A stretch of DNA of 64,000 nucleotides from a bacterium. Its GTDB lineage: Bacteria; Patescibacteriota; Minisyncoccia; Phycocordibacterales; CAIZLB01. A program made the translations under genes and the position numbers. Shown here piece by piece: positions 2,944-35,839 of this stretch; within the stretch, counting starts at the first letter, position 1; every line of letters begins with the position of its first letter. The notes under the pieces are model-generated. The model saw nothing but the letters and a program-made list of their open reading frames with translations, did not search any database and was not told the DNA's origin. Location: the NCBI GenBank assembly GCA_031411135.1, contig JANOAN010000003.1, forward strand, positions 10,614-74,613. Direction: 5' to 3'.

Positions 2944-4504
2944 TTTGATACTTTGTCTTAGCAGTATCTTTTTTAGTCTTATTGTATATAGGTCTGACAG
3001 AGAAAATCCCGTTAGTTCCGCATGGCTATATACTTCTATATGTTTTGTTGGATGGTCATTAGGTCTCTATGGTGTGACATCTTCTAACACAATGGAGACT
3101 GCATTAAAGTGGCAATATGTTCTGGATGTTTCTGCTATTTTATTACCCGCGTTCTACTTTAATTTTATATCTGAGTTATTTAAATTTAAAAATTATAAAT
3201 GGAGGTATTTAATAATTACAGTATCGTTTATTCTTGCGGGATTTAGTTTTAGTTCATTATTTAAAATTGGAGTAGAACCAAAATATGAATTTTTCTGGGT
3301 TAATCCAGGTCGCTTTTATTTAATATTCCCCATATACTTTATTATCAATGCTTTCATATCAAGTACGATATTTATTTCTCAATTTCTAAAAACATCCCCA
3401 AAATCTATTGAGCGTGGTCAAGTGAGAAACACGATGATTGCAGGCCTTATGGGATACATTGGTGGGGTATCAAATTTCTTCCCGCAATTTTTTAATATCT
3501 ACCCTTACGGAAACTACCTTGTCATCTTGTTCATAGTCTTCATGGTATACGGAGTTTTGAGATATAAACTATTAAGTACGAAGGTTATATCCGCACAAAT
3601 ATTTTCAACGATTCTAGTCTTGGTTTTTCTATTTAACTTATTTCGTTCTGCAACACTTTACGAGTGGGTTGCGAATTTTTTAGTTTTGTTATTTGTGTTT
3701 ATTTTTAGTGTCTTCTTAATAAGAAGCGTTGACCAAGAAGTTATCGCCAGGAAGGAAATCGAATCCCTCGCCACCTCACTCGAACAAGCCAACTCGCACC
3801 TCAAAGAACTGGACCAGCAAAAATCTGAATTCGTCTCCCTCGCATCGCACCAACTCCGCGGTCCCCTCACCGCCATAAAAGGCTACGCCTCAATGCTTCT
3901 CGATAACGACTTTGGACCAGTAGAGGGTGGTGTCCGCGATGCAGTGGACAAAATGTACCAATCTACTCAGGACTTGGTAGTTGTGGTTGGAGACTATCTA
4001 GATGTATCAAGAATTGAACAAGGTCGCATGAAGTACGATTTTTCTGACTTTGACATGAAGGATCTTGTCGCAACTACAATCACCGAACTAAAACCAAACA
4101 TTGAACGCGCAAAACTAGATGTGAGTTTTGATTATGATTCAAATTCAAACTTCATGGTTAATGCAGACCAAGGAAAAATCAGACAAGTAATTGGTAACTT
4201 GTTAGATAACTCGATTAAATATACACCCAAAGGTAGTATTCATGTCTGGCTTCAAAAAACTCCTGAAAATAAAATCTTAATTAGTATTTCTGATACCGGA
4301 GTTGGTATTCGCCCGGAAATTCTACCGAGGCTTTTTGAAAAGTTTACCCGAGCACCCGATGCTTCGAAAACCAATATCTTAGGAACAGGACTCGGTCTTT
4401 ACGTGGCAAAGAAAATGATAGAGGCGCATAGTGGCCGGGTGTGGGCAGAATCTGCAGGTGCTGATAAAGGTTCAACTTTCTTTATTGAACTAAAATCCCT
4501 TTGA
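2921..4504 (+). CDS. sensor histidine kinase with multi-TM N-terminal domain
   Basis: Six to seven predicted TM helices, then 'SLASHQLRGPLTAIKGYASML' (HisKA) and an HATPase_c G-box 'GTGLGLYVAKKMIEAHSG'. Confidence 0.85.
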   Translation: MNLFSISSLILCLSSIFFSLIVYRSDRENPVSSAWLYTSICFVGWSLGLYGVTSSNTMETALKWQYVLDVSAILLPAFYFNFISELFKFKNYKWRYLIITVSFILAGFSFSSLFKIGVEPKYEFFWVNPGRFYLIFPIYFIINAFISSTIFISQFLKTSPKSIERGQVRNTMIAGLMGYIGGVSNFFPQFFNIYPYGNYLVILFIVFMVYGVLRYKLLSTKVISAQIFSTILVLVFLFNLFRSATLYEWVANFLVLLFVFIFSVFLIRSVDQEVIARKEIESLATSLEQANSHLKELDQQKSEFVSLASHQLRGPLTAIKGYASMLLDNDFGPVEGGVRDAVDKMYQSTQDLVVVVGDYLDVSRIEQGRMKYDFSDFDMKDLVATTITELKPNIERAKLDVSFDYDSNSNFMVNADQGKIRQVIGNLLDNSIKYTPKGSIHVWLQKTPENKILISISDTGVGIRPEILPRLFEKFTRAPDASKTNILGTGLGLYVAKKMIEAHSGRVWAESAGADKGSTFFIELKSL

Positions 4505-4553
4505 TAAATCGCCATTTTATGGCATTATGCACCTGCAGCGATAGCTGCTACAT

Positions 4554-4628
4554 GGTGACTATAGTTTAGTGGTAAAACTCCGGTTTGTGGAACCGGTATC
4601 GAGGGTCCGATTCCCTCTAGTCACCCCA
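4554..4628 (+). tRNA. tRNA-His (anticodon GTG) with encoded G-1 and 3' CCA
   Basis: Cloverleaf folds by hand: G-1 pairs C73; acceptor GTGACTA/TAGTCAC; anticodon loop TTGTGGA; T-arm GAGGG-TCCGATT-CCCTC. Confidence 0.8.
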
Positions 4629-4731
4629 AATATATACTCCTAGCAAAATTGACTAACCCCCTTCTTTTGCATACTATCAAAACGGAACTTGAAAAAACAT
4701 CACAAAAACAACACCAGAAAGCAGGTAACCA

Positions 4732-5580
4732 ATGAATCCACAAATCTTAGACGGAAAAATCTGCAGTGCCGAAGTTCGCGGAGAACTCGCCGATGAGGTC
4801 CGTAAGTGTCAGCGTCCCCCGAGTCTCGGTATCATCCTCGTCGGAAACGACCCTCGAAGCGAGGTGTACGTCAGTCACAAACTGAAAGCGGCAAAGGAAG
4901 TTGGAATAGAAACTCACATCATCCGGTGTGACTCAAACATTTCAACAGCAGACCTTCTGCTTGTCGTCGGACGGTATAATCGGGATGTGAACATGGATGC
5001 ATTTATCATCCAATTCCCGCTCCCGCCGCACATCGACAAAGAGGTCATCATCAACTCAATCGACCCTTTGAAGGACGCCGACTGCTTCCACCACGCAAAT
5101 CAAGGGTTGCTTTTCCAAGGCACTCCACGCTTCGTCCCAGCCACCCCTCGCGGAGTGATTGAATTGCTCCGCAGGTACGGCCACACAACGTCCGGAAAGC
5201 GCGTGGTAGTCGTCGGTCACAGCCTCATTGTCGGACGTCCGCTTGCTGCGGCACTTCTACTCGAAGGTCCAATGGGAGAAGCGACGGTAACAATTGCTCA
5301 CATTAAAACACAAGATCTACCGGACGTTACTCGCACAGCGGAAATCCTCATCACCGCGACAGGTAAGCCCGGTTTGATTGCACGTGAACATGTCATGCCT
5401 GGCGCAGTGGTCGTCGATGTCGGTATAACCAAAACCGAAAAAGGAATCGTAGGTGATGTGGACTTTGAAGCGGTTAGTGCTGTTGCTTCGGCAATTACTC
5501 CCGTGCCGGGAGGAGTTGGGCCGATGACGGCCGTAATACTTCTCAAGAACACACTTCTTGCACACCAGTTGTGCCGTTAA
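4732..5580 (+). CDS. folD: bifunctional methylenetetrahydrofolate dehydrogenase/cyclohydrolase
   Basis: Full-length FolD-like sequence ('YVSHKLKAAKEVGI', 'TPRGVIELL', 'PGGVGPMT'). Sits in the GC-rich segment. Confidence 0.85.
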   Translation: MNPQILDGKICSAEVRGELADEVRKCQRPPSLGIILVGNDPRSEVYVSHKLKAAKEVGIETHIIRCDSNISTADLLLVVGRYNRDVNMDAFIIQFPLPPHIDKEVIINSIDPLKDADCFHHANQGLLFQGTPRFVPATPRGVIELLRRYGHTTSGKRVVVVGHSLIVGRPLAAALLLEGPMGEATVTIAHIKTQDLPDVTRTAEILITATGKPGLIAREHVMPGAVVVDVGITKTEKGIVGDVDFEAVSAVASAITPVPGGVGPMTAVILLKNTLLAHQLCR

Positions 5581-5592
5581 TCTTCCACCGAT

Positions 5593-5641
5593 CCATTCAC
5601 GAGACCACCGTCCGTGACAGGGTCGGTGGTTTTTCGTTTTT
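5593..5641 (+). terminator. intrinsic terminator downstream of folD; member of a conserved terminator family (see 9254..9306, 37833..37866)
   Basis: 'ccaccgtccGTGACAGggtcggtgg' hairpin followed by TTTTTCGTTTTT. Confidence 0.6.
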
Positions 5642-5693
5642 ATATATTAAAAAAAAGAGCTTGCAACATATCGCTACGTTGCAAGCTCAGTAA

Positions 5694-6803
5694 TTAATTC
5701 TTCAATTGCTCAATCGACCGTACCAAGTTCTTCCGAGCAGTAGTTTCGTACTTGTCTCGAAACAACGCTGTCGAATAGATCGATGAACGGTCGAGGAAGG
5801 ACTGGAGGACACTTGACCGACCTGCACAGAAGTCGACCTGCGGAACCCAATCATATTCTCTGCGGATTCCCGCTTCGTACGCATCGAAGGCTTTTTCTGA
5901 CTTACCTAAAACCATGAGGTCAAGGTCTACCAGAATTTGAGCTGCACGATCAGTTGGCACTGCGGCATGCTTGGTCTCCATAACCAATTCACTGACTTGT
6001 TCACCTAGGCTATCAGGTAAATCAATCTTTCCGATAGTGTCCTTTGCCAACTCTGCACTCTGCTCTTCATTGTCCTTTGCTTTCGGATCGTAAACTGCAT
6101 CATGGAACCAGATTGCCAATGCCACAGCTGGATCACCTTCGTGCATTTGCTCGAGTTCGTCGAGCATCATCACGATATGTTCCAGATTATGGTAGGCCCT
6201 CTGCGCTTCACCATATCGTTTCAGGAGATCTTCCAAGACCGCTTCCGATCCTTTAGGATTTCCCAACACCGACATAAGCGTCGCCCAATGCTTCCGTGCT
6301 TTTCCGAGAACAAACTTTTCCTTGAGTCTGACCACAACGGCTGCAGGAACTGAACGAGTCACTTGGCTCTCCCACTCGGGGTCGATTCCAACATGCCCCT
6401 TTACCATACTTGAACTCACATGCATGAGATTCGGCAAGCATGGAACCCAGATAGTTTCGACTGTTGGGCAGATCATGCGATTCTCTTCGGCCAGCGTTTG
6501 CTCGGCTTCGAGATCTTTGAAGTTCCGCAGACCCCGAACAATGACTTGTGCACCGATAGATTCGGCATGCTTTACGACGTAATGGCCGGAGCAGACATCC
6601 ACGGTGACATTTGGCAGATGTACTACAGCTGCCTTAGCCATACCTACTCGCTCCTCGGGAGTGAATGTGTATGTCTTTCGAGGATCCACTGCGACGAGAA
6701 CAATGAGTTCATCGTAGAGCGGTGCCATCCGTTCGATGACGTTGATGTGTCCGTTTGTGATTGGATCGAGACTTGCCGCATATACTGCTTTTCTTGCTTT
6801 CAT
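5694..6803 (-). CDS. coaD: phosphopantetheine adenylyltransferase (CoaD) fused to a C-terminal HD-domain phosphohydrolase
   Basis: N-terminal 155 aa align to PPAT ('AVYAASLDPITNGHINVIER', 'IRGLRNFKD'). The C-terminal ~200 aa carry HD motifs 'YHNLEH' and 'WFHDAVYDP'. Confidence 0.8.
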   Translation of the reverse strand: MKARKAVYAASLDPITNGHINVIERMAPLYDELIVLVAVDPRKTYTFTPEERVGMAKAAVVHLPNVTVDVCSGHYVVKHAESIGAQVIVRGLRNFKDLEAEQTLAEENRMICPTVETIWVPCLPNLMHVSSSMVKGHVGIDPEWESQVTRSVPAAVVVRLKEKFVLGKARKHWATLMSVLGNPKGSEAVLEDLLKRYGEAQRAYHNLEHIVMMLDELEQMHEGDPAVALAIWFHDAVYDPKAKDNEEQSAELAKDTIGKIDLPDSLGEQVSELVMETKHAAVPTDRAAQILVDLDLMVLGKSEKAFDAYEAGIRREYDWVPQVDFCAGRSSVLQSFLDRSSIYSTALFRDKYETTARKNLVRSIEQLKN

Positions 6804-6805
6804 AA

Positions 6806-7402
6806 CTATTTTCCTTTCTTTTGTTTGAGATTTTGATAGAGATTGCTCACCCTATCTTTGAGTTGATCCAAGCTACAGTCTGTGTGAACCACAAACTGAG
6901 CTCTCTGTTCTTTTTCTGCTGATGGAAGTTGCTGATCAAGTCTGGCTTGTATCTCTACATCGTCCATCTGTCTGTTTTCTCGCAATCTTCGAAACTGCTC
7001 GTCAGGATTACAGGTTGCAACTATGATCTCTGCAAACTGTTCCTCGCTCATTGTTTCGAAAATGATAGCTGACTCGACAATGCAAACCTTGCCATCACCG
7101 GCAAAATCAACCTTCTCATTCACACTTGCCCACACAAGGGGGTGGATCAGAGCTTCAAGCAATCTTTTCTTTTCAGGGTCCTCAAAGATGATTTTTGCAA
7201 TTGCTCGAAAGTTCACTTTTTCACTTGAGAAAACGTTTATACCAAGGATGGTATTGATTTGATGTCTGTGTGCATTACCAGAGATGATTTCTTTAGCAAT
7301 CTGGTCACAATCTAGAATCAATACATCTGGATACTTTGAGAGCAGTGTTGCCACAGCACTCTTACCGCAGCCTATATTGCCCGTAAGTCCGAATGGTTTC
7401 AT
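6806..7402 (-). CDS. coaE: dephospho-CoA kinase
   Basis: 'GLTGNIGCGKSAV' P-loop; DPCK-like length. Separated by 2 nt from coaD, so an operon. Confidence 0.8.
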   Translation of the reverse strand: MKPFGLTGNIGCGKSAVATLLSKYPDVLILDCDQIAKEIISGNAHRHQINTILGINVFSSEKVNFRAIAKIIFEDPEKKRLLEALIHPLVWASVNEKVDFAGDGKVCIVESAIIFETMSEEQFAEIIVATCNPDEQFRRLRENRQMDDVEIQARLDQQLPSAEKEQRAQFVVHTDCSLDQLKDRVSNLYQNLKQKKGK

Positions 7403-7453
7403 AAGTTGTCCTTTCTTTTTTAAATGTGCTGTTCCGGAGTCATCTTCATATTT

Positions 7454-7481
7454 TTGACAAAAAGAGTCAATACTGTATAAT
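7454..7481 (+). promoter_or_regulatory. sigma70-like promoter (TTGACA-16-TATAAT) for the TrmB-like regulator gene
   Basis: TTGACA at 7454-7459 and TATAAT at 7476-7481, about 15 nt before the ATG at 7497. Confidence 0.5.
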
Positions 7482-7496
7482 AACCATTATACAAAT

Positions 7497-8264
7497 ATGC
7501 AAGAGCCCCGAAAACATCTTATGAGTCTTGGTTTAAGTGATTCTGAAGTCACCGTGTATTTAGCCATGGTGTCAGGGGCCAGAACTGCTAGAGATCTCGT
7601 AAAGGTTACTCGCCTAAAAAGACCAACAGTTTACTATGCACTGGGTTGTCTAGAAAAAAGAGGACTGACAAGCAAAACTGGCTTAGCGGGTGATAAAAGC
7701 TTTTCACTTGAACAAATTGAAAAACTATCTGTCATTGCTAAAGAAAAAGCATTGGAGTTTTCTAAACTTCAACAACGCATCGATGAGATGGTCCCTACCC
7801 TATCAGCTACATCATCTCCAGCTAATCAAAAACCAACAGTCGCTTTTTATGAGGGAGTAGACGCAGTGAAGAGCGCCGTCATGGATATGCTTTATTGTAA
7901 AAGTAAAAAAATTAGCTCTGTTGTGCCCAAGCAAAACTTTTTCTGGCAGGTAGGCCAAGATTTTGTTGAGCTTTATATTGAGGAGCGTGTTAAGCGAAGT
8001 ATTAAAACTAAGAATTTATGGGAAGCACCCATAAATAAGGGATTAATAAAACAATATTACGAGGGATTATCGCAAGTCAGAATATTACCTGAAGTAATGC
8101 ATGATAAATTTCAAACAACAACCTTTATGTATGACGACAAGACTCTCTATGTATCCTCAAAAAATAACAGCTACTGTGTACTTATAAAATCTAAGGAGCA
8201 CACGGATACGATGCGGGCATGGTTTGATGGGCTTTGGGGTGCATCGAAGCCGCATGATAGGTAG
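7497..8264 (+). CDS. TrmB-family transcriptional regulator
   Basis: N-terminal winged HTH 'LGLSDSEVTVYLAMVSGARTARDLVKVTRLKRPTVYYALGCLEKRGL', followed by a TrmB-like C-terminal domain. Confidence 0.65.
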   Translation: MQEPRKHLMSLGLSDSEVTVYLAMVSGARTARDLVKVTRLKRPTVYYALGCLEKRGLTSKTGLAGDKSFSLEQIEKLSVIAKEKALEFSKLQQRIDEMVPTLSATSSPANQKPTVAFYEGVDAVKSAVMDMLYCKSKKISSVVPKQNFFWQVGQDFVELYIEERVKRSIKTKNLWEAPINKGLIKQYYEGLSQVRILPEVMHDKFQTTTFMYDDKTLYVSSKNNSYCVLIKSKEHTDTMRAWFDGLWGASKPHDR

Positions 8265-8307
8265 AGCAAATATGACAGAGACACCAATAACCTGATAAAA
8301 TATAGGT

Positions 8308-8727
8308 ATGGATATTATTTCTAGAATAAAGGCACTGCACCTTCCAATCGGTAAGTATATTGTCTTTGGTAGTTCTGTTATGGAAATTCATGGAATACGA
8401 AAATCTAGAGATGTTGATTTAATTATTGATAAAGATATATACGAGGAATTAAAGAAGCGTGGGTGGAAAAGACACTGGTTTTTTAAAAGGGTTCTTACTT
8501 GTAAGGCTTTGAAAAAAGATGGGAACGAGGCTTTCAGTCATATAAAGTGGAAAAATTATAGGGTAGAAAATGATGAGCTGTTTAGAAATGCGGAGATAAT
8601 AGACGGAGTCCCATTTATGGAGCTTAGGGAATATTTAAGGTACAAAAGATGTCTTCCACGAGCAAAGGATAAGATGGATGTTAAGTTGCTGGAAGATTAC
8701 TTTTCATCTAAAGGAATAGTGGTGTAA
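8308..8727 (+). CDS. nucleotidyltransferase-domain protein (pol-beta-like minimal NTase)
   Basis: 'FGSSVMEIHGIRKSRDVDLII' matches the GS...DxD NTase signature. Confidence 0.5.
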   Translation: MDIISRIKALHLPIGKYIVFGSSVMEIHGIRKSRDVDLIIDKDIYEELKKRGWKRHWFFKRVLTCKALKKDGNEAFSHIKWKNYRVENDELFRNAEIIDGVPFMELREYLRYKRCLPRAKDKMDVKLLEDYFSSKGIVV

Positions 8728-8846: not shown

Positions 8847-9236
8847 ATGGCCATGCCATATGCACGATTGGTAGTACAGAGGACAGCGCACACACAACTC
8901 GGAAGTAACCAAAGCCTCATTGAGCTCGCAAACAAACTTCGCGGGTTGATCGCAGGTTGCCTCACTTGTAACGACGAAGGAGGAAAACTCCAGCCAACCG
9001 ACGTAGAAGTTGAGATCGTCGATCGCGATTGGCGTCATGTCAGTGGAAGCCACTATGATGTAACTCTTACGGTCTTTGCCAAGGAATACCCGAGCCGCAA
9101 GGTCAACCTTGGCCTCTACACGACGGGCTTAACCAAAGGACTCCAAGGTCTGCTTCCTGAGGGGCTTACCGGCTTCGTTTGGGTTCTCCTCTGCCCCGCT
9201 GCATTTGTCGAGTTTGGTTTTGAGAAAAAGGAATAA
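8847..9236 (+). CDS. hypothetical protein (GC-rich)
   Basis: ORF with an upstream AAAGGAAAT RBS; a plus-strand terminator of the conserved family follows. Preferred over the antisense ORF 8769..9053. Confidence 0.45.
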   Translation: MAMPYARLVVQRTAHTQLGSNQSLIELANKLRGLIAGCLTCNDEGGKLQPTDVEVEIVDRDWRHVSGSHYDVTLTVFAKEYPSRKVNLGLYTTGLTKGLQGLLPEGLTGFVWVLLCPAAFVEFGFEKKE

Positions 9237-10967: not shown

Positions 10968-11198
10968 TCAGTTGAGGTTCTCCTGTCGCGGAGGAGGAAG
11001 CAGTAATACTTGCAAATTTCGGCCAGGGAAGACCTTATCGAACCACTCTGCTCCTCCGTGCTCAGTGAACCACATCATGCATTCGGCATTAGTTGGATCA
11101 TGTCCAAGATTAACGCCTGCTACCCAGCGACTGAAGCCCGTCGTAGCGATCCGAACTTGGATGCGATGACGGAACAACATCAAGGGGTTGTTGTTCAT
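10968..11198 (-). CDS. small hypothetical protein (GC-rich, 76 aa)
   Basis: Perfect AGGAGG RBS 6 nt upstream of the ATG (revcomp of 'catactctacctcct'). A bidirectional hairpin terminator lies at 10923..10957. Confidence 0.5.
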   Translation of the reverse strand: MNNNPLMLFRHRIQVRIATTGFSRWVAGVNLGHDPTNAECMMWFTEHGGAEWFDKVFPGRNLQVLLLPPPRQENLN

Positions 11199-11348
11199 AC
11201 TCTACCTCCTTTCTATAGGGGTTAGAAGGTTTTTAGGCCAGACGGGGTGTTTGGCTTAAATTAAGCATATTCCTCATTTTATAGGGTTTCAATAGAGTTA
11301 TGCACAGTTAAACCACAGGTTTTCAACTGTTCATACATTATATTTATT

Positions 11349-11909: not shown

Positions 11910-12566
11910 CTAGGCAACTTTTCCGAGCAGACTCGGGTCAGCCACCAGCATTTTCTTTGCGTCAGCAGTGCTGATGATGACTGGAATACCCGCCATACGG
12001 AGCTGGAGTGCCCAGATCAGGTTGTCGGTTGTTGCCGCTGGAGCGTGAATCGTGTCCCCTGTTGATGAATGGATCAGTTCGATACCGCGTTCAGCCTCGA
12101 CCTTATTAAGCGAAAGTCGCTTCGTCAGGTTGAGACCGGACAGATCGATTGAACCAGTACTTTTCACCTCATCCAACGACACCACCTCAAAACTCCCACC
12201 GCGGCTTCCACCGCACCAGAAGTTGGCCGATTTGACTTGGCATCCGGACATGGTGATCCACGAACCCGAACAGCTTTCAATCCACAGTCCACCAAGGAAG
12301 TGGGTGTTGTGCATCGTCATGACCAGGGCGTCGTAGCCGCCAATCATGACCATACCGTTGAATACGATGTTTTCAAGATGGATCGATTGGTACTCCTTTT
12401 TTTCTGCCCCCGTACCTTTTTTTGTGAGATCGATCTCCTTACTGTTAATATGAACGTCGTGTTGGACGGTCATTGATGAGTGGCGGCCCATGACCATATC
12501 ATCGGTCTTGGACTTCGCCACCATTTGCTGGAACTCACGAGCTGTGAGCAGTTGCGGTGTTTTCAT
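11910..12566 (-). CDS. hypothetical protein (GC-rich)
   Basis: GGAGG RBS 12 nt upstream; no recognisable motif. Confidence 0.45.
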   Translation of the reverse strand: MKTPQLLTAREFQQMVAKSKTDDMVMGRHSSMTVQHDVHINSKEIDLTKKGTGAEKKEYQSIHLENIVFNGMVMIGGYDALVMTMHNTHFLGGLWIESCSGSWITMSGCQVKSANFWCGGSRGGSFEVVSLDEVKSTGSIDLSGLNLTKRLSLNKVEAERGIELIHSSTGDTIHAPAATTDNLIWALQLRMAGIPVIISTADAKKMLVADPSLLGKVA

Positions 12567-12624: not shown

Positions 12625-14259
12625 CTACTTTACATGCACCTCATTCCCCAACACCGGCACATAAAACTTATCGATATATTCCACAAGCATTCTTGTCGTA
12701 CTGAATTTTTCTAAAATCAAATCTCTGGAATTTTTCATTCTCGTTCTCCATTGATCTTTCGAGTCATAATACATCGGGACAATTTCCCACTCTAAAATAT
12801 CCAACATATTTCGACTTCCTTCTATTGTCCAACCAATCTGCGAGAGATTCACTTCATACACCCAGCCGTCCCTTGTTGAAAATGGCAAAGCCCCGTTGAG
12901 GCACGCTTTCATACCTGAAGTTCCACACGCTTCCCTTCCAACCTCTGGAGTATTGAGCCACACATCACATCCTGAAACCAACATTTTTGAAAGTTCTAAA
13001 TCATAATTCGGTAAATATACTAAAATATCTTTTAACTCATTTCCTGCATATTGTAAGAGGGTTTTTAAAAACGGATTTCCTTCTTCCGCTGGTCCTGAAA
13101 AAACAATCTGCACTTTACATCCTTCTCGTGAAGCGATTTCTTTAAATCTTTTCAAGTCTGAAAGAATCGCAATTGGTTGCTTGTATTCCACCAACCTTCT
13201 TCCCCACCCAAGGAGCAGTACATCTTCGTCAAAAGCTTTCCCAGTTTGTTTTTTAATTTCTTTTAAAAGCAACCTCTTATTCTCCTGATGTCTCTGCCAA
13301 AAATTAGCTGAATCTACATAGTCGCCTATGGCATCCCAGCGCTCTATATATATACCATTCGTCACCACTTCAATATTAAAATCCTTCCACAGAACTCCAG
13401 CTTTTATTGAATGTAGCATCGACACAGCATTCACCTTTGATGACATATTAAGTGCCAAGTTTGTCATCGAGAAAAACTCTTCGTTAGGAATTTTTCCAAG
13501 GGAAATGATCACATTCAGTGCGACTTCAATTTCCTCGGAAAATCTACGGAGCATATAATCTACTTTATCAATTGCAAAAATTTCCTGACCAGCTGGCACA
13601 AGTGTGTGATTGGTAAATACAATATGCTGACGTGCATATTGATAAGCTTTCGCAAACGGCAACTGATGACGATGCATCTCGTGGCGTATAAGCTCAAGAC
13701 ATAAAAATGCCGAGTGGCCTTCGTTTAAATGGAAAACTGATGGATGGATTTCAAGTGCACGTAAAAATCTCATACCCCCGATACCAAGAAGGATTTCCTG
13801 CATCAATCTCACATCGTGATTCTCATCATACAAAATGTTCGTAATACCCTTATCATCAATATGATTTTCTTCAATATCCGTATCTAGTAAAATTATTCTC
13901 GCATTATTACTTTTGATTTCCCACGCACGAATCAGCACGTCGCGATCTCCTATGGGTAGTGTGATCGTTAAAACTTTTCCTTCTTTGTCCAAAACTTTGG
14001 ATAATCCGAAATCCCAAGGATTCTTTTTTTCTCCAAAGACACTGCCCCACTTATATTTATAAAAAAGCCCCATACATACCACCGGAAAACCCTGGTCTGC
14101 CATTTCAAAAAAATAATCTCCTGCCAAAACCCCTAATCCTCCTGCATAAAACCTACGATCATTAAAAATTGCGTACTCGGCGGAGAAATAGGCCACCGGG
14201 TCTTTTTTCAAAGCCTCGTACTGCTCTGTATTTTTAAATTGTGCAAGCCACTCTTTCAT
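12625..14259 (-). CDS. glgP: alpha-glucan (glycogen/maltodextrin) phosphorylase, GT35
   Basis: PLP-lysine motif 'EACGTSGMK'. The start was trimmed from 14382 to the ATG at 14259, which has an AGGGGG RBS and sits 4 nt after the GH57 stop. Confidence 0.8.
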   Translation of the reverse strand: MKEWLAQFKNTEQYEALKKDPVAYFSAEYAIFNDRRFYAGGLGVLAGDYFFEMADQGFPVVCMGLFYKYKWGSVFGEKKNPWDFGLSKVLDKEGKVLTITLPIGDRDVLIRAWEIKSNNARIILLDTDIEENHIDDKGITNILYDENHDVRLMQEILLGIGGMRFLRALEIHPSVFHLNEGHSAFLCLELIRHEMHRHQLPFAKAYQYARQHIVFTNHTLVPAGQEIFAIDKVDYMLRRFSEEIEVALNVIISLGKIPNEEFFSMTNLALNMSSKVNAVSMLHSIKAGVLWKDFNIEVVTNGIYIERWDAIGDYVDSANFWQRHQENKRLLLKEIKKQTGKAFDEDVLLLGWGRRLVEYKQPIAILSDLKRFKEIASREGCKVQIVFSGPAEEGNPFLKTLLQYAGNELKDILVYLPNYDLELSKMLVSGCDVWLNTPEVGREACGTSGMKACLNGALPFSTRDGWVYEVNLSQIGWTIEGSRNMLDILEWEIVPMYYDSKDQWRTRMKNSRDLILEKFSTTRMLVEYIDKFYVPVLGNEVHVK

Positions 14260-14263
14260 TTTT

Positions 14264-15757
14264 TTAAACCCCCTGTTGTTCTGGTTGACCACCACGGAGG
14301 CGCGAGTATTCATCTTTATATTTTGTAATAATTTGTTCGACTTCTTCATTTGGAATTTTAACACGTAAAAGGTCAATTGCATTCATTGCTTCATATATAT
14401 CAAGTTTGTTTTCTAGTTTGTACACCGCATCTCGCCATAAAATTGCTTGTTCATATTCCTTGTTTTCAATTGCTTCCTTTTCCAATCGTTTCATCATATC
14501 AACGAAGGCATAATAAACCCCTTCTTCTTCACCACCTTTAGAAATAGTTCTATCTTTGAAAGGGATGCGCAGAACCGTTTGTTGTTCATGACTCATCTCA
14601 CGAATCTTTCCTGATCGTTGCCAATTGAAACCGGTCGACACGATGTTTTGATAAAGTTTACCCGCCTTGTTTAGAACTTCCGGATCAAGATTTGAAATTA
14701 AACTTAAGACTTCATGCAATCTATATGCTCCGTCCTCTACCATTTCCATACTCCACCAAGGTTTTCCTGAAGCCCACCAAAAATGATCGCTGGTTAACGC
14801 ACGATCCATCTTTTTTCGCACGTCCAAATATTCGGAAGCGTTTTTATCCATTTTCTGAACTTGATCCAACGCAAGTTTTAACAATTCATGTTGCATTGTG
14901 TGTAAAATATTCTCAGGATCTGCCCATGATATGAATTGAACTCCCCTTTCAATATCCTTCTTGCTACTAGCCCAAGTAGACTTGATTGGAGAAATTTCTA
15001 CTATGTCTTTATAAAGCTCCATGAGCTTTGAAATATTTACAAGATGTAATTCTGGAACAGAAAACATATCAAAAAGAAGTTTCTCTAACCCAGGTCGGTG
15101 GTGCCCGAAAGTTTCCCCATCCATTCCAGTCAAAATGTAACGGTTACTCTTTAAATCATCAGTCATCGCATCCATCAAAGTCTTCACCGAACGCACGCCG
15201 GCGCCCATAATAAGATTACTTAGTCTTCTTTCTCTAAAAAATACTTTCAAATTAGTATTTTTTATCTTATATATTTTAGTGTAGTCCACCCTTCCTGTTT
15301 CCCCATAAGCCGCAATCTCATCGAGGATGATCCATTCAAAACCCATTTCCTCAACGATCGCTGACATTTCCTCTTTAAAAGCCATCTCGGGTGGAAAGAA
15401 TCCTTTCGGATTATATGAATCTCCAAGGTACTGGCGGCTAATCTCATCGTTAATTTGTATCTGGCGAACAATTTCTTCTTTATCCAAAAATGGCAAGAAC
15501 GAATGATATTTGGCAGATCCTGTAAATTCGATTCGTCCATCTTTTCCCATCTCTTTCAACATTTCAATTAAATCCTGGTGACCATATCTATCAAAAAGCT
15601 CTAGCAAAGACCCGTTTATATTAAGTGTTAAGTGAATATCTTTATTGTCCCGCAACTGAGTTAGCAGGGGTCGGTAGCACTGTGCAATCACTGCTTCCAA
15701 CACATCAGCTTGCTGGTCCGGCGGCTGATATATGTGTAAGAAGTTTGCCCAGTACAT
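14264..15757 (-). CDS. GH57-family glycoside hydrolase (alpha-amylase / glucan branching enzyme-like)
   Basis: N-terminal 'HIYQPP', 'GHHRPG' and ~500 aa length match GH57 branching enzymes. Confidence 0.65.
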   Translation of the reverse strand: MYWANFLHIYQPPDQQADVLEAVIAQCYRPLLTQLRDNKDIHLTLNINGSLLELFDRYGHQDLIEMLKEMGKDGRIEFTGSAKYHSFLPFLDKEEIVRQIQINDEISRQYLGDSYNPKGFFPPEMAFKEEMSAIVEEMGFEWIILDEIAAYGETGRVDYTKIYKIKNTNLKVFFRERRLSNLIMGAGVRSVKTLMDAMTDDLKSNRYILTGMDGETFGHHRPGLEKLLFDMFSVPELHLVNISKLMELYKDIVEISPIKSTWASSKKDIERGVQFISWADPENILHTMQHELLKLALDQVQKMDKNASEYLDVRKKMDRALTSDHFWWASGKPWWSMEMVEDGAYRLHEVLSLISNLDPEVLNKAGKLYQNIVSTGFNWQRSGKIREMSHEQQTVLRIPFKDRTISKGGEEEGVYYAFVDMMKRLEKEAIENKEYEQAILWRDAVYKLENKLDIYEAMNAIDLLRVKIPNEEVEQIITKYKDEYSRLRGGQPEQQGV

Positions 15758-15762
15758 ATTAT

Positions 15763-17265
15763 TTATTGGTTTTTTTCTTCACTATTAAAAGCAATCGCTT
15801 TTTTGAACATTTCTATGTATTCTTTGGCAGACTTTTTCCAAGAAAAATCTGTGGTCATTGCGCGCTTTTGGAGAGTCACCCACTCTTTAGGATGCTTGTA
15901 AGTTTCAAGAGCGCGCACGAAGGCACCAAAAAAAGCATACGGGTCATACTTTTCAAAAACGAATCCTGTGCCTTCCTTATTGTTCTCATTATAATCAACA
16001 ACACTATCCGCTAGACCTCCTGTTTTTCTAACTAGCGGTAGTGCCCCATAGTGCATAGCTTCCATCTGAGTAAGGCCAGATGGTTCAAATTTTGAAGGGA
16101 CAAGGACTAAATCCGCCCCAGAGTGCACAACGTGAGGTAAGGTTGTATCAAATGATAAGTGAGTGGCAACTTGAGTATATCTCTTCTCTAAATCCGCAAA
16201 AAATCCTAGATATTTAGAATCCCCATTTCCTAGCACAATAAGTTGAAATTTGAAGTTTTCAAGAAGGGGTTCGATTGTCTGTAATACCAAGTCCATCCCC
16301 TTTTGCTCTGCTAGTCTAGAAACGATTGCGACAAGAGGAGTACTTGGCTCTTCTTCCAAGTTAAATTTTCGCTGTAAAACAGCTTTGTTCTTTTGCCTGT
16401 CTTTGAGGCTTTTTACTGAGTACTTGTATTCAATATATGGATTAGCAGTTGGGTCGTTACTTGTATAATCGATTCCATTTAAAATTCCCGACAGACGTGA
16501 ACGACGCTCTGCTAAAAGCCCATCGAGCATTTCACCGTATTCTGGTGTGGTGATTTCTTGCGCATAGTTTGGAGAAACCGTGTTAACCACATCTGCAAAA
16601 AGAATACCACGTCGCATAAAATTGATTTTTAACATGCGCTGATCATCAATTGCAGGTATAACTGATCGTCCATCGTCATAATCCATTTCATTTATAAAAT
16701 GATGATCAAACATTCCCTGAAAATGCAGGTTGTGAATACAAAAAACTGAAGCAATCTTGGAGATAATCGGGTCTTTGGCATATTCGGTTTTCATCAAGTT
16801 TGGAATAAGCCCTCCTTGCCAATCCGCTGAAACGATAATGTCCGGTCTCCAGTCTTCATTTCTTTTTATGAATTCTAATGCGGCGCGCGAAAAAACGGCG
16901 AATCGCGCGCCGTCATCATCATATCCATATACATTTCCTCGCTGTTCAAAGTACTCCATGTTCTCCATAAAATAACTTGGAACTTCTGAGCCGTTTGCGG
17001 TAGCCACTTTTACGTTACAAGAAATTGGGTGCTCATCTCTTCCGCTTGGAATAGAAATTCCTTCCATGATCATTTCCATCGGGAATTTTTCTTTTGGAAT
17101 TGAGCTGTAGTAAGGAATCATTACCCGAGCATCATGGCCAAGCTCGCGAAGAGCCTTTGGAAGAGAGTACATCACCTCGCCAAGTCCTCCGACTTTGATA
17201 AATGGAGCTGCTTCACAACCTAAAAAGAGAATTTTAAGGCCTTTTGATTTTAGAGAGAGTTTCAT
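15763..17265 (-). CDS. glgA: glycogen synthase (GT5, ADP-glucose type)
   Basis: 'KVGGLGEVMYSLPKAL' (KxGGL motif) and the C-terminal 'GLTQMEAMHYGALPLV'. Confidence 0.85.
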   Translation of the reverse strand: MKLSLKSKGLKILFLGCEAAPFIKVGGLGEVMYSLPKALRELGHDARVMIPYYSSIPKEKFPMEMIMEGISIPSGRDEHPISCNVKVATANGSEVPSYFMENMEYFEQRGNVYGYDDDGARFAVFSRAALEFIKRNEDWRPDIIVSADWQGGLIPNLMKTEYAKDPIISKIASVFCIHNLHFQGMFDHHFINEMDYDDGRSVIPAIDDQRMLKINFMRRGILFADVVNTVSPNYAQEITTPEYGEMLDGLLAERRSRLSGILNGIDYTSNDPTANPYIEYKYSVKSLKDRQKNKAVLQRKFNLEEEPSTPLVAIVSRLAEQKGMDLVLQTIEPLLENFKFQLIVLGNGDSKYLGFFADLEKRYTQVATHLSFDTTLPHVVHSGADLVLVPSKFEPSGLTQMEAMHYGALPLVRKTGGLADSVVDYNENNKEGTGFVFEKYDPYAFFGAFVRALETYKHPKEWVTLQKRAMTTDFSWKKSAKEYIEMFKKAIAFNSEEKNQ

Positions 17266-17282
17266 ATTGCTTAAAAATTATA

Positions 17283-17876
17283 CTATATAGAACCCTTATC
17301 TACCATAATTGCCCTGTATTCATCTGCCGTCATCTCCTTTATCTCAGGGGTATTTTTGTAGCTTGGGTTCTTTACATAAGCCGGTTTACCACCACTTTCC
17401 ATTACATAATAGGCAAAACCTTTCATTTTTCGAACTATTTCGTAGTCAGCGTGTCCTGGCAGGCTTACTGGATCTTTTTCGGCAAAGTTTACCGGACTGT
17501 CATCTGCTGTTGCGAGCCAAACCTTACCCGTGTTTACCATAAGGTGCCCAATACCTGTTGGAATTGGGAGGATATCACCTGCTTTAGTGTGAACTGCCAC
17601 GCACACTTCCATTTCATCATCAGTTTTTCTTTTCTGAAGCATCAAAATCCCTTCCCCCCGGAGAACATGGTACGTCTCATGTATGTCGCCAACATGGTAG
17701 TGCCCATAGGCTTTGATGTATTCACCCCCTACTGTTCCAGGCTCCCACACAGTAATATTCTCCTTCTCACTTCCCCCACGGATCATATAGTAGTGCACTT
17801 CTGGGCCTTCTGCATCAGGTGACATCAACACCTCTCGCATCATTTCGTGACTCCGCTCGGCAAATGGTTTTATCAT
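17283..17876 (-). CDS. cupin-type (archaeal-type) glucose-6-phosphate isomerase
   Basis: ~190 aa cupin with metal ligands 'GHYH...E...H' ('AYGHYHVGDIHETYHVLRGEG'), matching the cupin-PGI family. Confidence 0.65.
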   Translation of the reverse strand: MIKPFAERSHEMMREVLMSPDAEGPEVHYYMIRGGSEKENITVWEPGTVGGEYIKAYGHYHVGDIHETYHVLRGEGILMLQKRKTDDEMEVCVAVHTKAGDILPIPTGIGHLMVNTGKVWLATADDSPVNFAEKDPVSLPGHADYEIVRKMKGFAYYVMESGGKPAYVKNPSYKNTPEIKEMTADEYRAIMVDKGSI

Positions 17877-17899
17877 AAAGATATTATACTGCTATACTA

Positions 17900-18646
17900 G
17901 TGATTATGGAACTCAAAAAAATTATTGCTTTCGATCTGGATGGGACGCTGACCGAAAGTAAGCAGCCAATGACAGAGGAGATGGCGCACCTTATTGATGA
18001 GCTATCTTCTAAAACCAAAGTGGCAATCATTTCTGGCGGTTCATTCCCGAGATTTAAAGATCAATTTCTCCACCAACTGAAAAATACAAAAAACCTTATC
18101 CTCCTGCCGACAAGTGGAAGCTGTCGATACGAATATGATGAAGCCACAAAAGATTGGAAGCAAACTTTTTCTCACCCGTTTACAAATGAAGTAAAGAACA
18201 AAGTCATCGAAGAGCTAAATAAAATTATCCAAGAAAAAGAATTTGATATACCAGAAAAACATTTCGGGCCCTATATCGAAGACCGTGGCAACCAGATTAC
18301 CCTATCGACACTTGGACAAAATGCACCAAATGATGAGAAGAAACTTTGGGACCCGCATAGCATCAAGAGACTTAAAATCAGAGAGAGATTAGAAAAATTT
18401 ATACCGGAAATCGATGCGCACATCGGCGGGATGACGTCGATAGATGTACTTCCAAAAGGTTTCGATAAAGCAGTTGGGTTGAAGTTATTATTAGAGGCAG
18501 AAAACCTCACAATTAAAGACATTCTATTTATTGGTGACGCTGTTTTTGAAGGGGGAAATGATTATTCCCCCCTCCAGGCTGGGATTGAAACCATTGGGAT
18601 TAAGGATCCGGGTGAGACAGCGGAGGTTATAAGGAAACTGTTATAA
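17900..18646 (+). CDS. HAD-IIB family hydrolase, eukaryotic-type phosphomannomutase-like
   Basis: 'FDLDGTLTES' motif I; ~250 aa like PMM. Confidence 0.55.
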   Translation: MIMELKKIIAFDLDGTLTESKQPMTEEMAHLIDELSSKTKVAIISGGSFPRFKDQFLHQLKNTKNLILLPTSGSCRYEYDEATKDWKQTFSHPFTNEVKNKVIEELNKIIQEKEFDIPEKHFGPYIEDRGNQITLSTLGQNAPNDEKKLWDPHSIKRLKIRERLEKFIPEIDAHIGGMTSIDVLPKGFDKAVGLKLLLEAENLTIKDILFIGDAVFEGGNDYSPLQAGIETIGIKDPGETAEVIRKLL

Positions 18647-18774: not shown

Positions 18775-19119
18775 ATGAAAAAACTTTCTGCTCACCTCCA
18801 CGAGGTGTTCCCGAAAATTCGCTCACTGATGAAGGCATTCATCGGGGTTACCCCGCAGACTTACCACCAACATGACTGGGCGAACTTCATCGGGCTGTTC
18901 TTCACAGGATGGTCTTGCCAGATCATTGTGCAAGGAGCGAGTCCGAGGAACACATTCTGCTTTATGTGGGACAGCGACCACAGCACGCTAACGGTAACGA
19001 GAAGGGATCAGTGCCACTTGGGGCAAGTTGTACCACTTGAGCCTGAAAACATCCCAGACAACACAACCATTCCGAAAGAACAGAGGGACGCAAAAAGTCA
19101 GGTGACTTTCACCTTCTAA
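18775..19119 (+). CDS. hypothetical protein (GC-rich)
   Basis: AAAGGAGG RBS upstream and a hairpin terminator 'cctgcaattttgcagg'+T-run downstream. Confidence 0.45.
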   Translation: MKKLSAHLHEVFPKIRSLMKAFIGVTPQTYHQHDWANFIGLFFTGWSCQIIVQGASPRNTFCFMWDSDHSTLTVTRRDQCHLGQVVPLEPENIPDNTTIPKEQRDAKSQVTFTF

Positions 19120-25269: not shown

Positions 25270-25974
25270 ATGAAAGCCCCCGCCAAACTTGTACTAATTC
25301 GTCACGCTGAATCAGAAAGAAATGCAGCACTCAATGGTGGTTTTTTTCTAAATGACCCAGATATTTTACAAAAAGTTGGAAAAGTACCTGATCATAGAAT
25401 ACCCATAACTGAGCACGGTAAATCTCAAGCTAAAAAAACTTCTTCTAAATTACTAGAAATTCATGGGATTCCAGACGTAGTTTTTCATTCTGGATATACA
25501 AGAACTAAACAAACAGCTGAAGGTGTTTTAAGCGATTATCCAGAAAATGCAAATCTTTCAATAAAAGAAGACCTTCTTATTCGCGAACGAGAAGGTGGTT
25601 ATCCATATACATTATTAGAATCTGAAAAAGATCTACACTTCCCTTATTTACAAGATTATTGGAACGTTGTCGGTGGAATATTTTCTCGCCCTGTTGGAGG
25701 AGAAAGCCTAATGGATGTTGTTGAGAATAGACTAAAGCCTTTCTTAGAAAATTTAAATAAAAACTATTCTGGAAAAACAATATTTCTAGTGACGCACGGA
25801 AGAGTGATTCAGTGTATGCGCTTTATTCTAGACGAAATGTCTTTGGAAGAAATGGAAAAGTTTATAGCTGATAATAAATCGTCACCTCGAAATTGTAGCG
25901 TAGCGGTTTATAAATACGATTCAAAAGAAGAAAAATTAAAATTAGACTCTTGGGATCAAGTTTACTGGGAATAA
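25270..25974 (+). CDS. histidine phosphatase family protein (phosphoglycerate mutase-like)
   Basis: 'LIRHAESERN' RHG motif and 'VTHGRVI'. Confidence 0.75.
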   Translation: MKAPAKLVLIRHAESERNAALNGGFFLNDPDILQKVGKVPDHRIPITEHGKSQAKKTSSKLLEIHGIPDVVFHSGYTRTKQTAEGVLSDYPENANLSIKEDLLIREREGGYPYTLLESEKDLHFPYLQDYWNVVGGIFSRPVGGESLMDVVENRLKPFLENLNKNYSGKTIFLVTHGRVIQCMRFILDEMSLEEMEKFIADNKSSPRNCSVAVYKYDSKEEKLKLDSWDQVYWE

Positions 25975-26582
25975 GTAAGAGATAAACCGCCGGTCCGAAA
26001 ATCGGGCCGGCGGTTTGACGCTTCAAGATGAGCTTTCAAATACCGCTTCAGTGCGGGACCAAACTCACTTCCGCACCTCTTCAGGTATCCAGAAATGACT
26101 TCGGAGCCAATTTTCTTGTTATTTCTTTGCGCAGCCCTCACCCAGGACTTCATCTCTGATCCAATCCGACGGATTACTACTTGTCCGTCATTGTTCAGAA
26201 AAACGCTGACGAATTCATCCGGATCCCATCCGCGGGCTTCTTTCCGGATAACACAGGCGATGAGCATCTCACGCTCGACACCACTTCCATCCTCTGGATA
26301 AATCAATCCCAAGGGGAGGAACAACCCTCCGAATTTTTCTGATTGATTCAAAATTCCTTCAATCAGATTCAGGCCGTTAAGCTGTGCCGTGTAGAGATTT
26401 TCCATCACTGCCCTTTTTTCTCCAATTCGCTTCTTTTTGGCCGTTTGGACTTGGATAGCCCAGATGGCCATTCCAATGAGTAGTGCGAGTGATGTCCAAA
26501 AGAGGACCAACATACGGTTGTACGCTACATTGCCACTTTGACGAGCAGGGGCGACTCCAGTAGTGAGTGCGGGTGTGTTCAT
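25962..26582 (-). CDS. hypothetical membrane-anchored protein (GC-rich)
   Basis: ORF with one TM helix. Its 3' end reads through the hairpin at 25984..26017, so the C-terminus is uncertain. Confidence 0.4.
   Translation of the reverse strand: MNTPALTTGVAPARQSGNVAYNRMLVLFWTSLALLIGMAIWAIQVQTAKKKRIGEKRAVMENLYTAQLNGLNLIEGILNQSEKFGGLFLPLGLIYPEDGSGVEREMLIACVIRKEARGWDPDEFVSVFLNNDGQVVIRRIGSEMKSWVRAAQRNNKKIGSEVISGYLKRCGSEFGPALKRYLKAHLEASNRRPDFRTGGLSLTYSQ
25984..26017. terminator. strong bidirectional hairpin terminator
   Basis: 'aaaccgccggtccgaaaatcgggccggcggttt' forms a 12-bp GC-rich stem. Confidence 0.6.
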
Positions 26583-28586: not shown

Positions 28587-29039
28587 TTAATCTGCAGGTT
28601 CCAGAGCATCGTAGTTAACCCACTGTTCCTTACAGTATCCTCGTGTATCATCTTCCCCAAATGTTTCTTCTGGTTGTTCGAGTGGTTCTATATGCACCAA
28701 CCAATCGTGAGTATGGTGTGGTGCCTTGAAACCCAATCGCTCTCCAACGTTGCGATGATCTTCGCGTTTTTGTAATATTTCGAGAGTGAGTGTTTCTTCC
28801 CCATAATGTTCAGCGGGTGTGCGAACAGCAAGCACTCGACTACGAATTTGAGTCCCGCCGATTCGTGAACCATAAGTAGATAGGACATCTAGGTTGGCGA
28901 TCACGATGTCTCCGGGCTTCACATTACATGCGGGTGTCGGTTTTTTGCATTTATTTTGGACCATGCGATTGTTGATGTAGATACTTCCGCAGAATTCGCA
29001 TTTAAGAATCTCGAGGTTGATGGTGGTGGGTTTAATCAT
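28587..29039 (-). CDS. hypothetical protein with N-terminal Cys4 zinc-ribbon (GC-rich), ribozyme-preceded
   Basis: CxxC...C...C at the N-terminus. Hammerhead ribozyme 1 lies 27 nt upstream of the start. Confidence 0.5.
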   Translation of the reverse strand: MIKPTTINLEILKCEFCGSIYINNRMVQNKCKKPTPACNVKPGDIVIANLDVLSTYGSRIGGTQIRSRVLAVRTPAEHYGEETLTLEILQKREDHRNVGERLGFKAPHHTHDWLVHIEPLEQPEETFGEDDTRGYCKEQWVNYDALEPAD

Positions 29040-29065
29040 GTTGGTTGGGATGGATTATTTATTTG

Positions 29066-29150
29066 TAACGTGCTTCTGTTTCGTCTTGCTCTACCACTCA
29101 GTAGAGAGACTCATCAGGCAGGCTTCACATCCTGCGACAGGTGAGAGTTT
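29066..29150 (-). ncRNA. hammerhead ribozyme (type III), copy 1
   Basis: Minus RNA: CUGUC|GCAGG-AUGUGAAG-CCUGC CUGAUGA G-helixII(GUCU..CUCUAC/GUAGAG..AGAC) GAAAC AGAAG. Canonical core with helix III closing. Confidence 0.75.
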
Positions 29151-29188
29151 TGAAAAGTTCTCTCAACTTTTTCTATTGCACTAAGGGG

Positions 29189-29725: not shown

Positions 29726-29754
29726 AGTTGGTGTTTTGTTGGGGTTTGAGTTGT

Positions 29755-29822
29755 AAGGTTCTTCTGTTTCGCTCTGTTGAGCTCGTCAGGCAAGATTCAT
29801 CTTGCGACAGAGAGGATTTTAA
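29755..29822 (-). ncRNA. hammerhead ribozyme (type III), copy 2
   Basis: Minus RNA: UCUCUGUC|GCAAGAUGAAUCUUGC CUGACGA GCUC-AACA-GAGC GAAAC AGAGA... Helix III is 5 bp (ACAGA/UCUGU). Confidence 0.8.
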
Positions 29823-29842
29823 GGTTCCTCGAACCTGCGTTC

Positions 29843-30073: not shown

Positions 30074-30087
30074 AGTGGTGGTTTGTA

Positions 30088-35775: not shown

Positions 35776-35808
35776 CACGCAAAAAACAGCTCAGAATATG
35801 GGCTGTTT

Positions 35809-35839
35809 TTTGTTTATCCAGGTGAGATTCGAACTTTTG
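35809..35839 (+). repeat. cassette boundary motif copy 1 (tttgtttatccaGGTGAGATTCGAACTTTTG)
   Basis: Direct comparison with 37289..37319 and 38634..38664. Confidence 0.6.

Follow-up and report, generated by a model that had tools for sequence, protein, structure and literature searches.

Evidence that a laterally exchanged coenzyme A cassette and an extra folD copy, rather than one genomic island, adjoin tRNA-His in a Candidatus Paceibacterota genome

The region analyzed here lies in a 64-kb stretch (the window) of contig JANOAN010000003.1, from a bacterium of Candidatus Paceibacterota, a phylum of the candidate phyla radiation (CPR), and it places two genes of coenzyme A (CoA) synthesis beside a folate gene and a tRNA gene. 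The tRNA gene, tRNA-His (GTG), occupies 4555-4628 on the forward strand (ARAGORN; 65.5 bits in Rfam) and is followed on the same strand by folD1 (4732-5580; Pfam, NCBIfam), a second, divergent and GC-rich copy of the methylenetetrahydrofolate dehydrogenase/cyclohydrolase gene, with a terminator-like hairpin and T-run at about 5606-5640. The reverse strand carries an operon whose first gene is coaE (6806-7402), for a dephospho-CoA kinase (DPCK) of 198 aa; the coaE stop codon lies 2 nucleotides (nt) from the start of coaD::HD (5694-6803), which encodes a fusion protein of 369 aa. In the fusion, a phosphopantetheine adenylyltransferase (PPAT) domain spans residues 1 to about 165 (nt 6803-6309) and a phosphodiesterase (PDE)-like HD phosphohydrolase domain residues about 170 to 369 (nt 6296-5697). 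The operon ends in its own intrinsic terminator (5657-5688, reverse strand), with a 14-bp stem, a 4-nt loop, and a T-tract. On the other side, a 94-bp control region (7403-7496) separates coaE from the divergent gene of a TrmB-family transcriptional regulator of 255 aa (7497-8264, forward strand). The regulator belongs to the conserved cassette described below; tRNA-His is a neighbor outside it.

Curated models place the two smaller proteins well. CoaE scores 103.2 bits with TIGR00152 (cutoff 65.55) and matches PF01121 at an E value of 1.3e-33, with the P-loop GNIGCGKS, and the regulator scores 36.4 bits with PF01978 (cutoff 25.6) over residues 8-58, its N-terminal winged helix. The promoter of the TrmB gene is of the sigma-70 type and agrees with the consensus at 12/12 positions, having a -35 element TTGACA (7454-7459) and a -10 element TATAAT (7476-7481) at a spacing of 16. 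A palindrome, TTGACAAAAAGAGTCAA, of the pattern TTGAC-N7-GTCAA, occupies 7454-7470; its other half, TTGACT, faces coaE, and the two halves double as back-to-back -35 elements, one for the TrmB side and one for the coaE side. The core of the control region is invariant in 4 genomes. We regard the palindrome, which is conserved and overlaps both -35 elements, as a candidate operator that the TrmB regulator probably binds. An earlier note on this DNA had named tRNA-His, FolD, CoaD (PPAT), and CoaE, had described the coaE-coaD::HD operon with a divergent promoter in the 94-bp gap, and had taken the C-terminal part of the fusion for an HD domain; the curated models agree with the four identities, the operon and promoter were confirmed, and the HD call is borne out by a fold search and conserved metal ligands.

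The CoaD part of the fusion scores 136.7 bits with TIGR01510 (cutoff 103.3) over residues 6-164 and has the PPAT fold. Its motifs PITNGH (T16, H19), R90-G91-x-R93 (RGLR), and S130-S131 (VSSSMVK) are intact, with little or no variation among 32 aligned homologues. From this alignment a very confident AlphaFold model was obtained, with a predicted local distance difference test score (pLDDT) of 95.4 and a predicted template modeling score (pTM) of 0.88, and its C-terminal domain has an all-helical HD fold that a fold search related to cyclic-nucleotide PDEs. The metal-ligand pattern H...HD...D is present as H209 (with H205), H234-D235, and D293/D295; H205, H209, H234-D235, N245-E246, D293, and D295 are invariant in the 32 homologues, and H279 is conserved in at least 90% of them. 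By sequence, the C-terminal ~200 aa gave no usable match in Pfam (E<=10), NCBIfam, or the PDB sequences, and at E<=10 they matched neither the Pfam HD family (PF01966) and the HD clan, nor PDEase_I (PF00233), nor the AcpH family (PF04336). The PDE signature HD[LIVMFY]xHx[AG]xx[NQ] is not satisfied, the local sequence HNLEHIVMML fitting only its H-[DN]-x-x-H core. The sole label found for this domain was the JGI description "predicted metal-dependent HD superfamily phosphohydrolase," on fragments, and the databases annotate the fusion simply as "PPAT." We read the C-terminal domain as an HD phosphohydrolase of the binuclear-metal type that is intact at its catalytic site and folded like a cyclic-nucleotide phosphodiesterase.

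An exhaustive search with the HD domain only returned 12,844 cluster representatives, 8,332 of them at E<=1e-10. Members of this family mostly stand alone, at 200-220 aa, and the form fused to PPAT is a minority. Within Candidatus Paceibacterota the full-length fusion occurs widely, in more than 110 clusters with 42-83% identity; a scan of viral contigs found no relative. Among the matches listed, coaD and an HD-family gene are also direct neighbors, read in different frames, in Planctomycetota (Humisphaera and a Phycisphaerales metagenome-assembled genome), Verrucomicrobiota, and Terriglobia (Acidobacteriota), and a frame check of three such loci (L006-L008) confirmed separate adjacent genes, not fusions. 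Fusion in one lineage together with adjacency in three other phyla implies a functional link between PPAT and the HD enzyme, for which this comparative evidence is strong. The literature search found no specific description of a PPAT-HD fusion, of COG4339, or of CoA metabolism in CPR/Parcubacteria, and the association is a real, widespread, and apparently undescribed variant in CoA metabolism.

Comparison with other Paceibacterota delimits a cassette of 2.6 kb (5650-8264) that consists of the terminator, coaD::HD, coaE, the divergent promoter with its palindrome, and the TrmB gene. A single blastn high-scoring pair covers window 5650-8259 against locus L002 (77.4% nt identity) and 5704-8237 against L003 (72.6%), and beyond ~5645 and ~8265 the sequences are no more alike than at random, the fall taking place within about 50 bp on each side; the operon terminator forms the distal edge, and the TrmB stop codon the proximal one. 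The best-conserved part is the 94-bp intergenic region, at 79-85% nt identity. The trio of TrmB divergent from coaE and coaD::HD recurs on the window contig, L002, L003, the P0006 contig, and L005 with unrelated flanks each time, and the regulator, always divergent from coaE, is 84%, 78%, and 69% identical to that of the window in L002, L003, and L005, respectively. Both folD and tRNA-His lie outside this unit; folD and coaD each end in a terminator of their own, and homology breaks off between the two.

The cassette is more similar between genomes than their backbones are. At the nt level it is 73-77% identical across Paceibacterota that share only 24-61% identity in their backbone proteins. 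For the window and L002, amino acid identity is 84% for TrmB, 81% for CoaD-HD, and about 75-76% for CoaE, versus 56% for L19, 51% for a tRNA-binding protein, 42% for a pseudouridine synthase, 34% for RuvX, and 32% for PilM; nonsynonymous divergence (dN) is correspondingly lower in the cassette (0.10-0.16) than in the backbone (0.32-0.78). A three-genome test used the window, L002, and L087, the last of which carries two backbone genes as well as the module. In the backbone proteins the window is closer to L087 (L19 61%, pseudouridine synthase 52%) than to L002 (56% and 42%), whereas in the cassette proteins it is far closer to L002 (CoaD-HD 81%, CoaE 75%) than to L087 (59% and 55%). Because differences in rate cannot reverse relative distances, at least one lineage must have received its cassette laterally.

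A case across phyla points the same way. Locus L085 encodes a true 369-aa fusion, 75% identical to that of the window, on a contig of 65% GC (about 85% at third codon positions, GC3) with a leucyl aminopeptidase whose named relatives are all Phycisphaerae/Planctomycetota. There the fusion gene is a GC-poor outlier (58.9%) and homology to the window is limited to the open reading frame (ORF), and the other coaD/HD genes of the planctomycete phylum are unfused and only 37-46% identical. Mobility of the coaE-coaD pair is further shown by a decayed coaE in L086 (9810-9944, aa 27-71, 56% identity) upstream of an otherwise solitary coaD::HD, and by the absence of the pair at the L087 site in two syntenic relatives (L088, L089). 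At the locus of this solitary coaD::HD we also observed a reverse transcriptase and bAvd pair (L086 18636-20046), suggestive of a diversity-generating retroelement.

For TrmB, coaE, and most pairs of fusion genes, the proportion of synonymous differences (pS) has reached saturation (~0.73). These transfers are therefore old, not recent, and an attempt to time them by synonymous divergence (dS) gave no date. Between the window and L002, pS of the fusion ORF is lower (0.51-0.54) than that of the flanking TrmB and coaE (0.73-0.75), which hints that this ORF was exchanged more recently than its flanks; no localized recombination tract could be resolved within coaD-HD, where pS is lowered uniformly over both domains. 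Taken together, sequence comparison supports lateral exchange of the cassette among distant Paceibacterota and with at least one member of Phycisphaerae. It is a concrete case of a small, regulator-equipped metabolic cassette that moves among CPR lineages and into a planctomycete.

Composition gives a less simple picture than the earlier note had drawn from a GC-rich block said to begin exactly at tRNA-His and to end exactly at the promoter. The mean GC of the window is 39.8% and patchy, ranging from 31% to 52% across 1-kb windows. GC is 52.7% for folD1 (GC3 52.7%, z=2.1, rank 2 of 74 ORFs) and 49.3% for coaD-HD (GC3 50%, z=1.5, rank 9), and the block holds for these two genes; it fails for coaE at 41.7% (GC3 40%, z=0.2, rank 27), and the TrmB gene is likewise at host GC. 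The boundaries are not abrupt, GC rising gradually from ~3.5 kb, in the 3' half of a histidine-kinase gene, and falling from ~6.7 kb. In sliding windows the block is thus seen in part, and comparable peaks stand elsewhere, for example one of 52% at 29.5-30.5 kb. The dinucleotide difference delta* over 5.5-7.5 kb reaches about the 90th-95th percentile and is equaled or exceeded in four other stretches.

GC is at least 47.5% in 13 of the 74 window ORFs, and those other than folD and coaD-HD are orphans without a Pfam family. Scattered ORFs of this kind (45-54% GC, GC3 up to 63%; 8847-9236, 10968-11198, 11910-12566, 18775-19119, 25962-26582, 28587-30362, and 47883-48644) stand amid housekeeping genes of 35-42% GC; they may be small foreign insertions, and they indicate that patchy GC is a common feature of the genome. 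The explanation that the other peaks are GC-rich because highly expressed, as for EF-Tu, was ruled out, as these ORFs lack any Pfam family, and the "Serglycin" matches among window ORFs were artifacts of GS linkers in the query.

Across ten loci in hosts from AT-rich to GC-rich, the GC of the fusion gene is drawn toward ~50%. It is 42% in a 34% host, 49-51% in hosts of 39-41%, 48% in a 48% host, and 59% in a 65% host, that is, +8 to +10 points in hosts of 34-41%, 0 in the 48% host, and -6 in the 65% host. The ~50% GC of coaD-HD is an intrinsic, stable property of the gene, with no insertion boundary or scar, and the trend reflects constraint and/or repeated movement among hosts that differ in GC. 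A caution follows for similar cases: beside a tRNA, a GC jump can be the sign of a gene whose composition stays stable while its genome drifts, and not of the edge of an island.

The folD copies form a separate subject. FolD1 is well above the Pfam cutoffs (PF00763, 105.9 bits versus 32.8; PF02882, 198.5 versus 27) and has the motifs YxxxK (YVSHK) and PGGVGP, and it falls below the equivalog cutoffs of NCBIfam (best score 296 bits versus 438; nearest to passing 281 versus 333). Its closest non-self homologues are 59-60% identical, none above 60%, and its nearest relatives form a Paceibacterota-type clade. Judged from these matches, FolD1 is divergent and its bifunctional activity is likely but not assured. 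A second copy, folD2, lies on the same contig (L001, 20653-21110), ~3.8 kb before window position 1 and about 8.6 kb from folD1; it has a host-typical GC of 40.6% and is 36% identical to folD1.

In other genomes a divergently oriented folD stands beside coaE-coaD::HD in L004 and L087 and not in L088, L089, or L090; linkage of folD with the CoA genes, seen in 3 of 6 contexts, recurs but is not obligatory. The FolD proteins of the window and L087 are 57% identical, similar to the backbone divergence, which means that sequence alone does not prove transfer of folD1. At 13.6 points above its host, versus 0-8 points in relatives, folD1 is the strongest compositional outlier in this genome. Because of this GC excess and its redundancy with FolD2, the most economical reading of folD1 is an extra copy acquired or retained from a GC-richer relative.

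How these observations fit together depends on whether 4554-7402 is one unit, as the earlier note had held. In that reading, folD, coaD-HD, and coaE would be a single GC-rich island integrated recently at tRNA-His with the donor composition kept; tRNA-His does lie immediately upstream, folD1 is a second copy, folD and coaD-HD exceed the window mean in GC, and delta* is raised over 5.5-7.5 kb. However, the composition is distinct from the host for folD and coaD-HD and not for coaE, and the GC of coaD-HD is drawn toward ~50% in all hosts. TrmB lies inside the conserved unit and folD and tRNA-His lie outside it, set off by separate terminators and the break in homology, and tRNA-His does not adjoin the module in any relative (L002-L004). 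No integrase or recombinase was found at 1.6-12.5 kb, the nearest recombinases lying at 48.9-51.6 kb, nor any att-like direct repeat of the tRNA-His 3' end in 4300-8700, and the saturated dS indicates an event that is not recent. We therefore consider a single tRNA-linked island very unlikely; lateral transfer, which the earlier note had drawn from composition and tRNA adjacency, is indeed supported, on other evidence and within other boundaries. Still less credible, and close to negligible, is an assembly or binning artifact in which a GC-rich stretch of another organism was misjoined into an AT-rich contig. The abrupt-looking change of composition in metagenome-derived sequence would fit it, but the GC changes are gradual, the cassette runs continuously from GC-rich coaD-HD into host-GC coaE and TrmB in five genomes, and the exact protein occurs with the same neighbors on two independently assembled contigs (NCBI, 116,676 bp; Logan, 30,190 bp).

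A more serious competitor is that no transfer took place, the cassette being vertical in Paceibacterota under stronger purifying selection than L19, RuvX, and PilM, with its ~50% GC set by amino acid and codon constraint. It accords with the conserved TrmB-coaE-coaD synteny, with the saturated pS of TrmB, coaE, and most coaD-HD pairs, with a gene GC that regresses toward ~50% in every host, as for constrained genes, and with the module of L087, which diverges about like the backbone and is at host GC. Against it stands the reversal of distances among the window, L002, and L087, which rates cannot produce, and the 84% identity of TrmB and 79-85% of the 94-bp intergenic region versus 56% for L19 are hard to square with equal age. 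The 75%-identical fusion in a Phycisphaerae genome, in a phylum whose own coaD/HD genes are distant and unfused, the flanks that differ in every genome, and the missing coaE-coaD pair at the L087 site in its syntenic relatives also speak against it, and we judge purely vertical descent unlikely. We may conclude, at a probability of roughly 0.7, that the region comprises two adjacent things, a horizontally exchanged CoA cassette (5650-8264) and an extra folD1, and not one island.

Several points weigh against this conclusion and the CoA role attached to it. The incongruence consists of pairwise identities for two backbone genes across three genomes together with a single case that crosses phyla. 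Most comparisons show saturation at synonymous sites, and strong purifying selection does contribute to the high identity of the cassette. The GC3 of 50% in coaD-HD persists in a genome of GC3 ~33-39% despite saturated dS to most relatives, and TrmB and coaE of the same cassette are near host composition, a contrast that is not fully explained. On the functional side, the HD domain falls in no curated sequence family, and the absence of coaA, coaX, and coaBC refers to the 64 kb plus an extra 4.3 kb of L001.

In bacteria, the biosynthesis of CoA is regarded as completely mapped. In this genome, profile searches of the window ORFs and of that extra stretch found no gene for earlier steps (coaA/coaX, coaBC, or pan), as the earlier note had stated for the window, and at this scale a pathway of the last two steps fed by 4'-phosphopantetheine salvage is plausible. 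CoaD, by its PPAT motifs, is predicted to adenylylate 4'-phosphopantetheine to dephospho-CoA, and CoaE would then phosphorylate dephospho-CoA to CoA; the cassette would supply these two steps in a host-dependent Paceibacterota cell that imports 4'-phosphopantetheine. The most likely role of the HD domain would be to hydrolyze a phosphoester in a CoA-related molecule and thereby feed or throttle PPAT. As candidate reactions, the domain would either free 4'-phosphopantetheine from holo-carrier proteins or from CoA-derived species or dephosphorylate 4'-phosphopantetheine.

It seems that the fusion of PPAT to an intact PDE-like HD domain, together with the coaD-HD adjacency in three phyla, points to a missing accessory activity. 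An extension to the HD family as a whole, large and unannotated with its ~12,800 representatives, is tentative and on balance improbable: it would be an unrecognized enzyme of CoA metabolism that makes or destroys 4'-phosphopantetheine and hands its product to PPAT, and it may then be, for example, a phosphopantetheinyl hydrolase of a third class, with holo-carrier proteins as its substrates, or a CoA/dephospho-CoA hydrolase. If this were true, HD-PPAT, CoaE, and the regulator would form a plug-in "CoA completion/recycling" cassette traded among CPR bacteria. The CoA supply of ultra-reduced CPR symbionts and the recycling of 4'-phosphopantetheine outside proteobacteria and mycobacteria are the open questions that it touches.

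Elsewhere in the window, a mobile and defense stretch (48724-57846) contains tRNA-Arg(GCG) (48724-48798), two large serine recombinases (48871-50268 and 50310-51629), a KAP-family P-loop NTPase (52126-54897), and DNA methyltransferases (N6_N4_Mtase, 54957-55778; D12, 55699-56616) with small flanking ORFs. The second recombinase is 82.5% identical in aa and 76% in nt to one that in L002 lies directly downstream of coaD::HD and also adjoins tRNA-Arg(TCT). A sequence of ~60 bp upstream of the L002 recombinase (11160-11220) has two matches in the window, near 51683 and at 52077-52136; they lie in the region 51630-52136, flank a 112-aa ORF, and may be repeats of the recombinase element. Another element may have integrated at tRNA-Ser(TGA), after which 35689-38608 holds a GC-rich 397-aa ORF (35945-37138) and a 120-aa ORF (37423-37785), without Pfam matches, and then a 226-aa ORF on the opposite strand. 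The window also carries an Rfam LOOT RNA (RF03000, 57906-58045, forward strand; 52.7 bits versus a gathering threshold of 46.4) shortly before an ORF (58132-59091) whose 319-aa product looks secreted, and a toxin-antitoxin-like pair (43433-43972) whose second ORF matches the YafQ toxin (PF15738). Metabolic clusters are devoted to glycogen/starch (12625-18646: alpha-glucan phosphorylase-like protein, GH57, starch-synthase-type GlgA, cupin-type glucose-6-phosphate isomerase, and phosphomannomutase-like HAD) and to copper/heavy metals (59891-63551: DsbD_2/HMA membrane protein, CopA-type P-type ATPase of 764 aa, and a metal-sensing CsoR-like repressor).

Set beside known systems, the region shares with tRNA-linked genomic islands the adjacency to a tRNA, an atypical composition, and accessory or duplicated metabolism in the form of folD1, but it differs from them in having neither an integrase nor flanking repeats, in boundaries other than those of the transferable unit, and in a tRNA association that is not conserved. 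At the level of fold, the HD domain resembles the catalytic domain of class-I 3',5'-cyclic-nucleotide PDEs (PDE4/5/7/9) and the HD hydrolases 2pq7 and YpgQ (5dqv), with 10-15% sequence identity. It measures ~200 aa, compared with ~330 aa for PDE catalytic domains, and unlike the class-I PDEs its genomic partners are CoA enzymes and not cyclic-nucleotide signaling.

A truncated, scavenging CoA route of PPAT and DPCK only is described for host-dependent bacteria (Sibon and Strauss 2016, as discussed in PMC8721197). The present case shares with it two enzymes that pass curated cutoffs, have their motifs, and are co-transcribed, and it shares a 64-kb stretch without an earlier gene in a CPR bacterium of reduced repertoire; it differs in the extra 200-aa HD domain on PPAT, the dedicated TrmB-type regulator, and the laterally exchanged nature of the cassette. 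For the HD domain, the nearest precedent in activity is AcpH of E. coli and Pseudomonas, a noncanonical HD-family acyl carrier protein phosphodiesterase (Thomas, Rigden, and Cronan 2007, as cited in PMC8557913) that releases 4'-phosphopantetheine from holo-carrier proteins; AcpH is confined to Gram-negatives and PptH to mycobacteria (PMC8557913). The known phosphopantetheinyl hydrolases are thus taxonomically restricted, and other lineages have no known enzyme. The likeness to AcpH would be that of an HD-superfamily metal-dependent phosphodiesterase acting on a CoA-derived group, with a product that is the substrate of PPAT.

Fusion of a CoA-pathway enzyme to a second catalytic domain is also found in COASY, a PPAT-DPCK fusion. 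PANK4 offers the further likeness that its pantothenate-kinase-like domain is fused to a DUF89 4'-phosphopantetheine phosphatase and limits CoA synthesis (PMC9352595), the fused partner being a metal-dependent phosphatase that acts on 4'-phosphopantetheine itself. PANK4 differs in fold (DUF89 versus HD), in partner (PanK-like versus PPAT), and in being eukaryotic, and we use it as an analogy only. By such analogy, the precedents of AcpH and PANK4 show how the HD domain could work and not the family to which it belongs.

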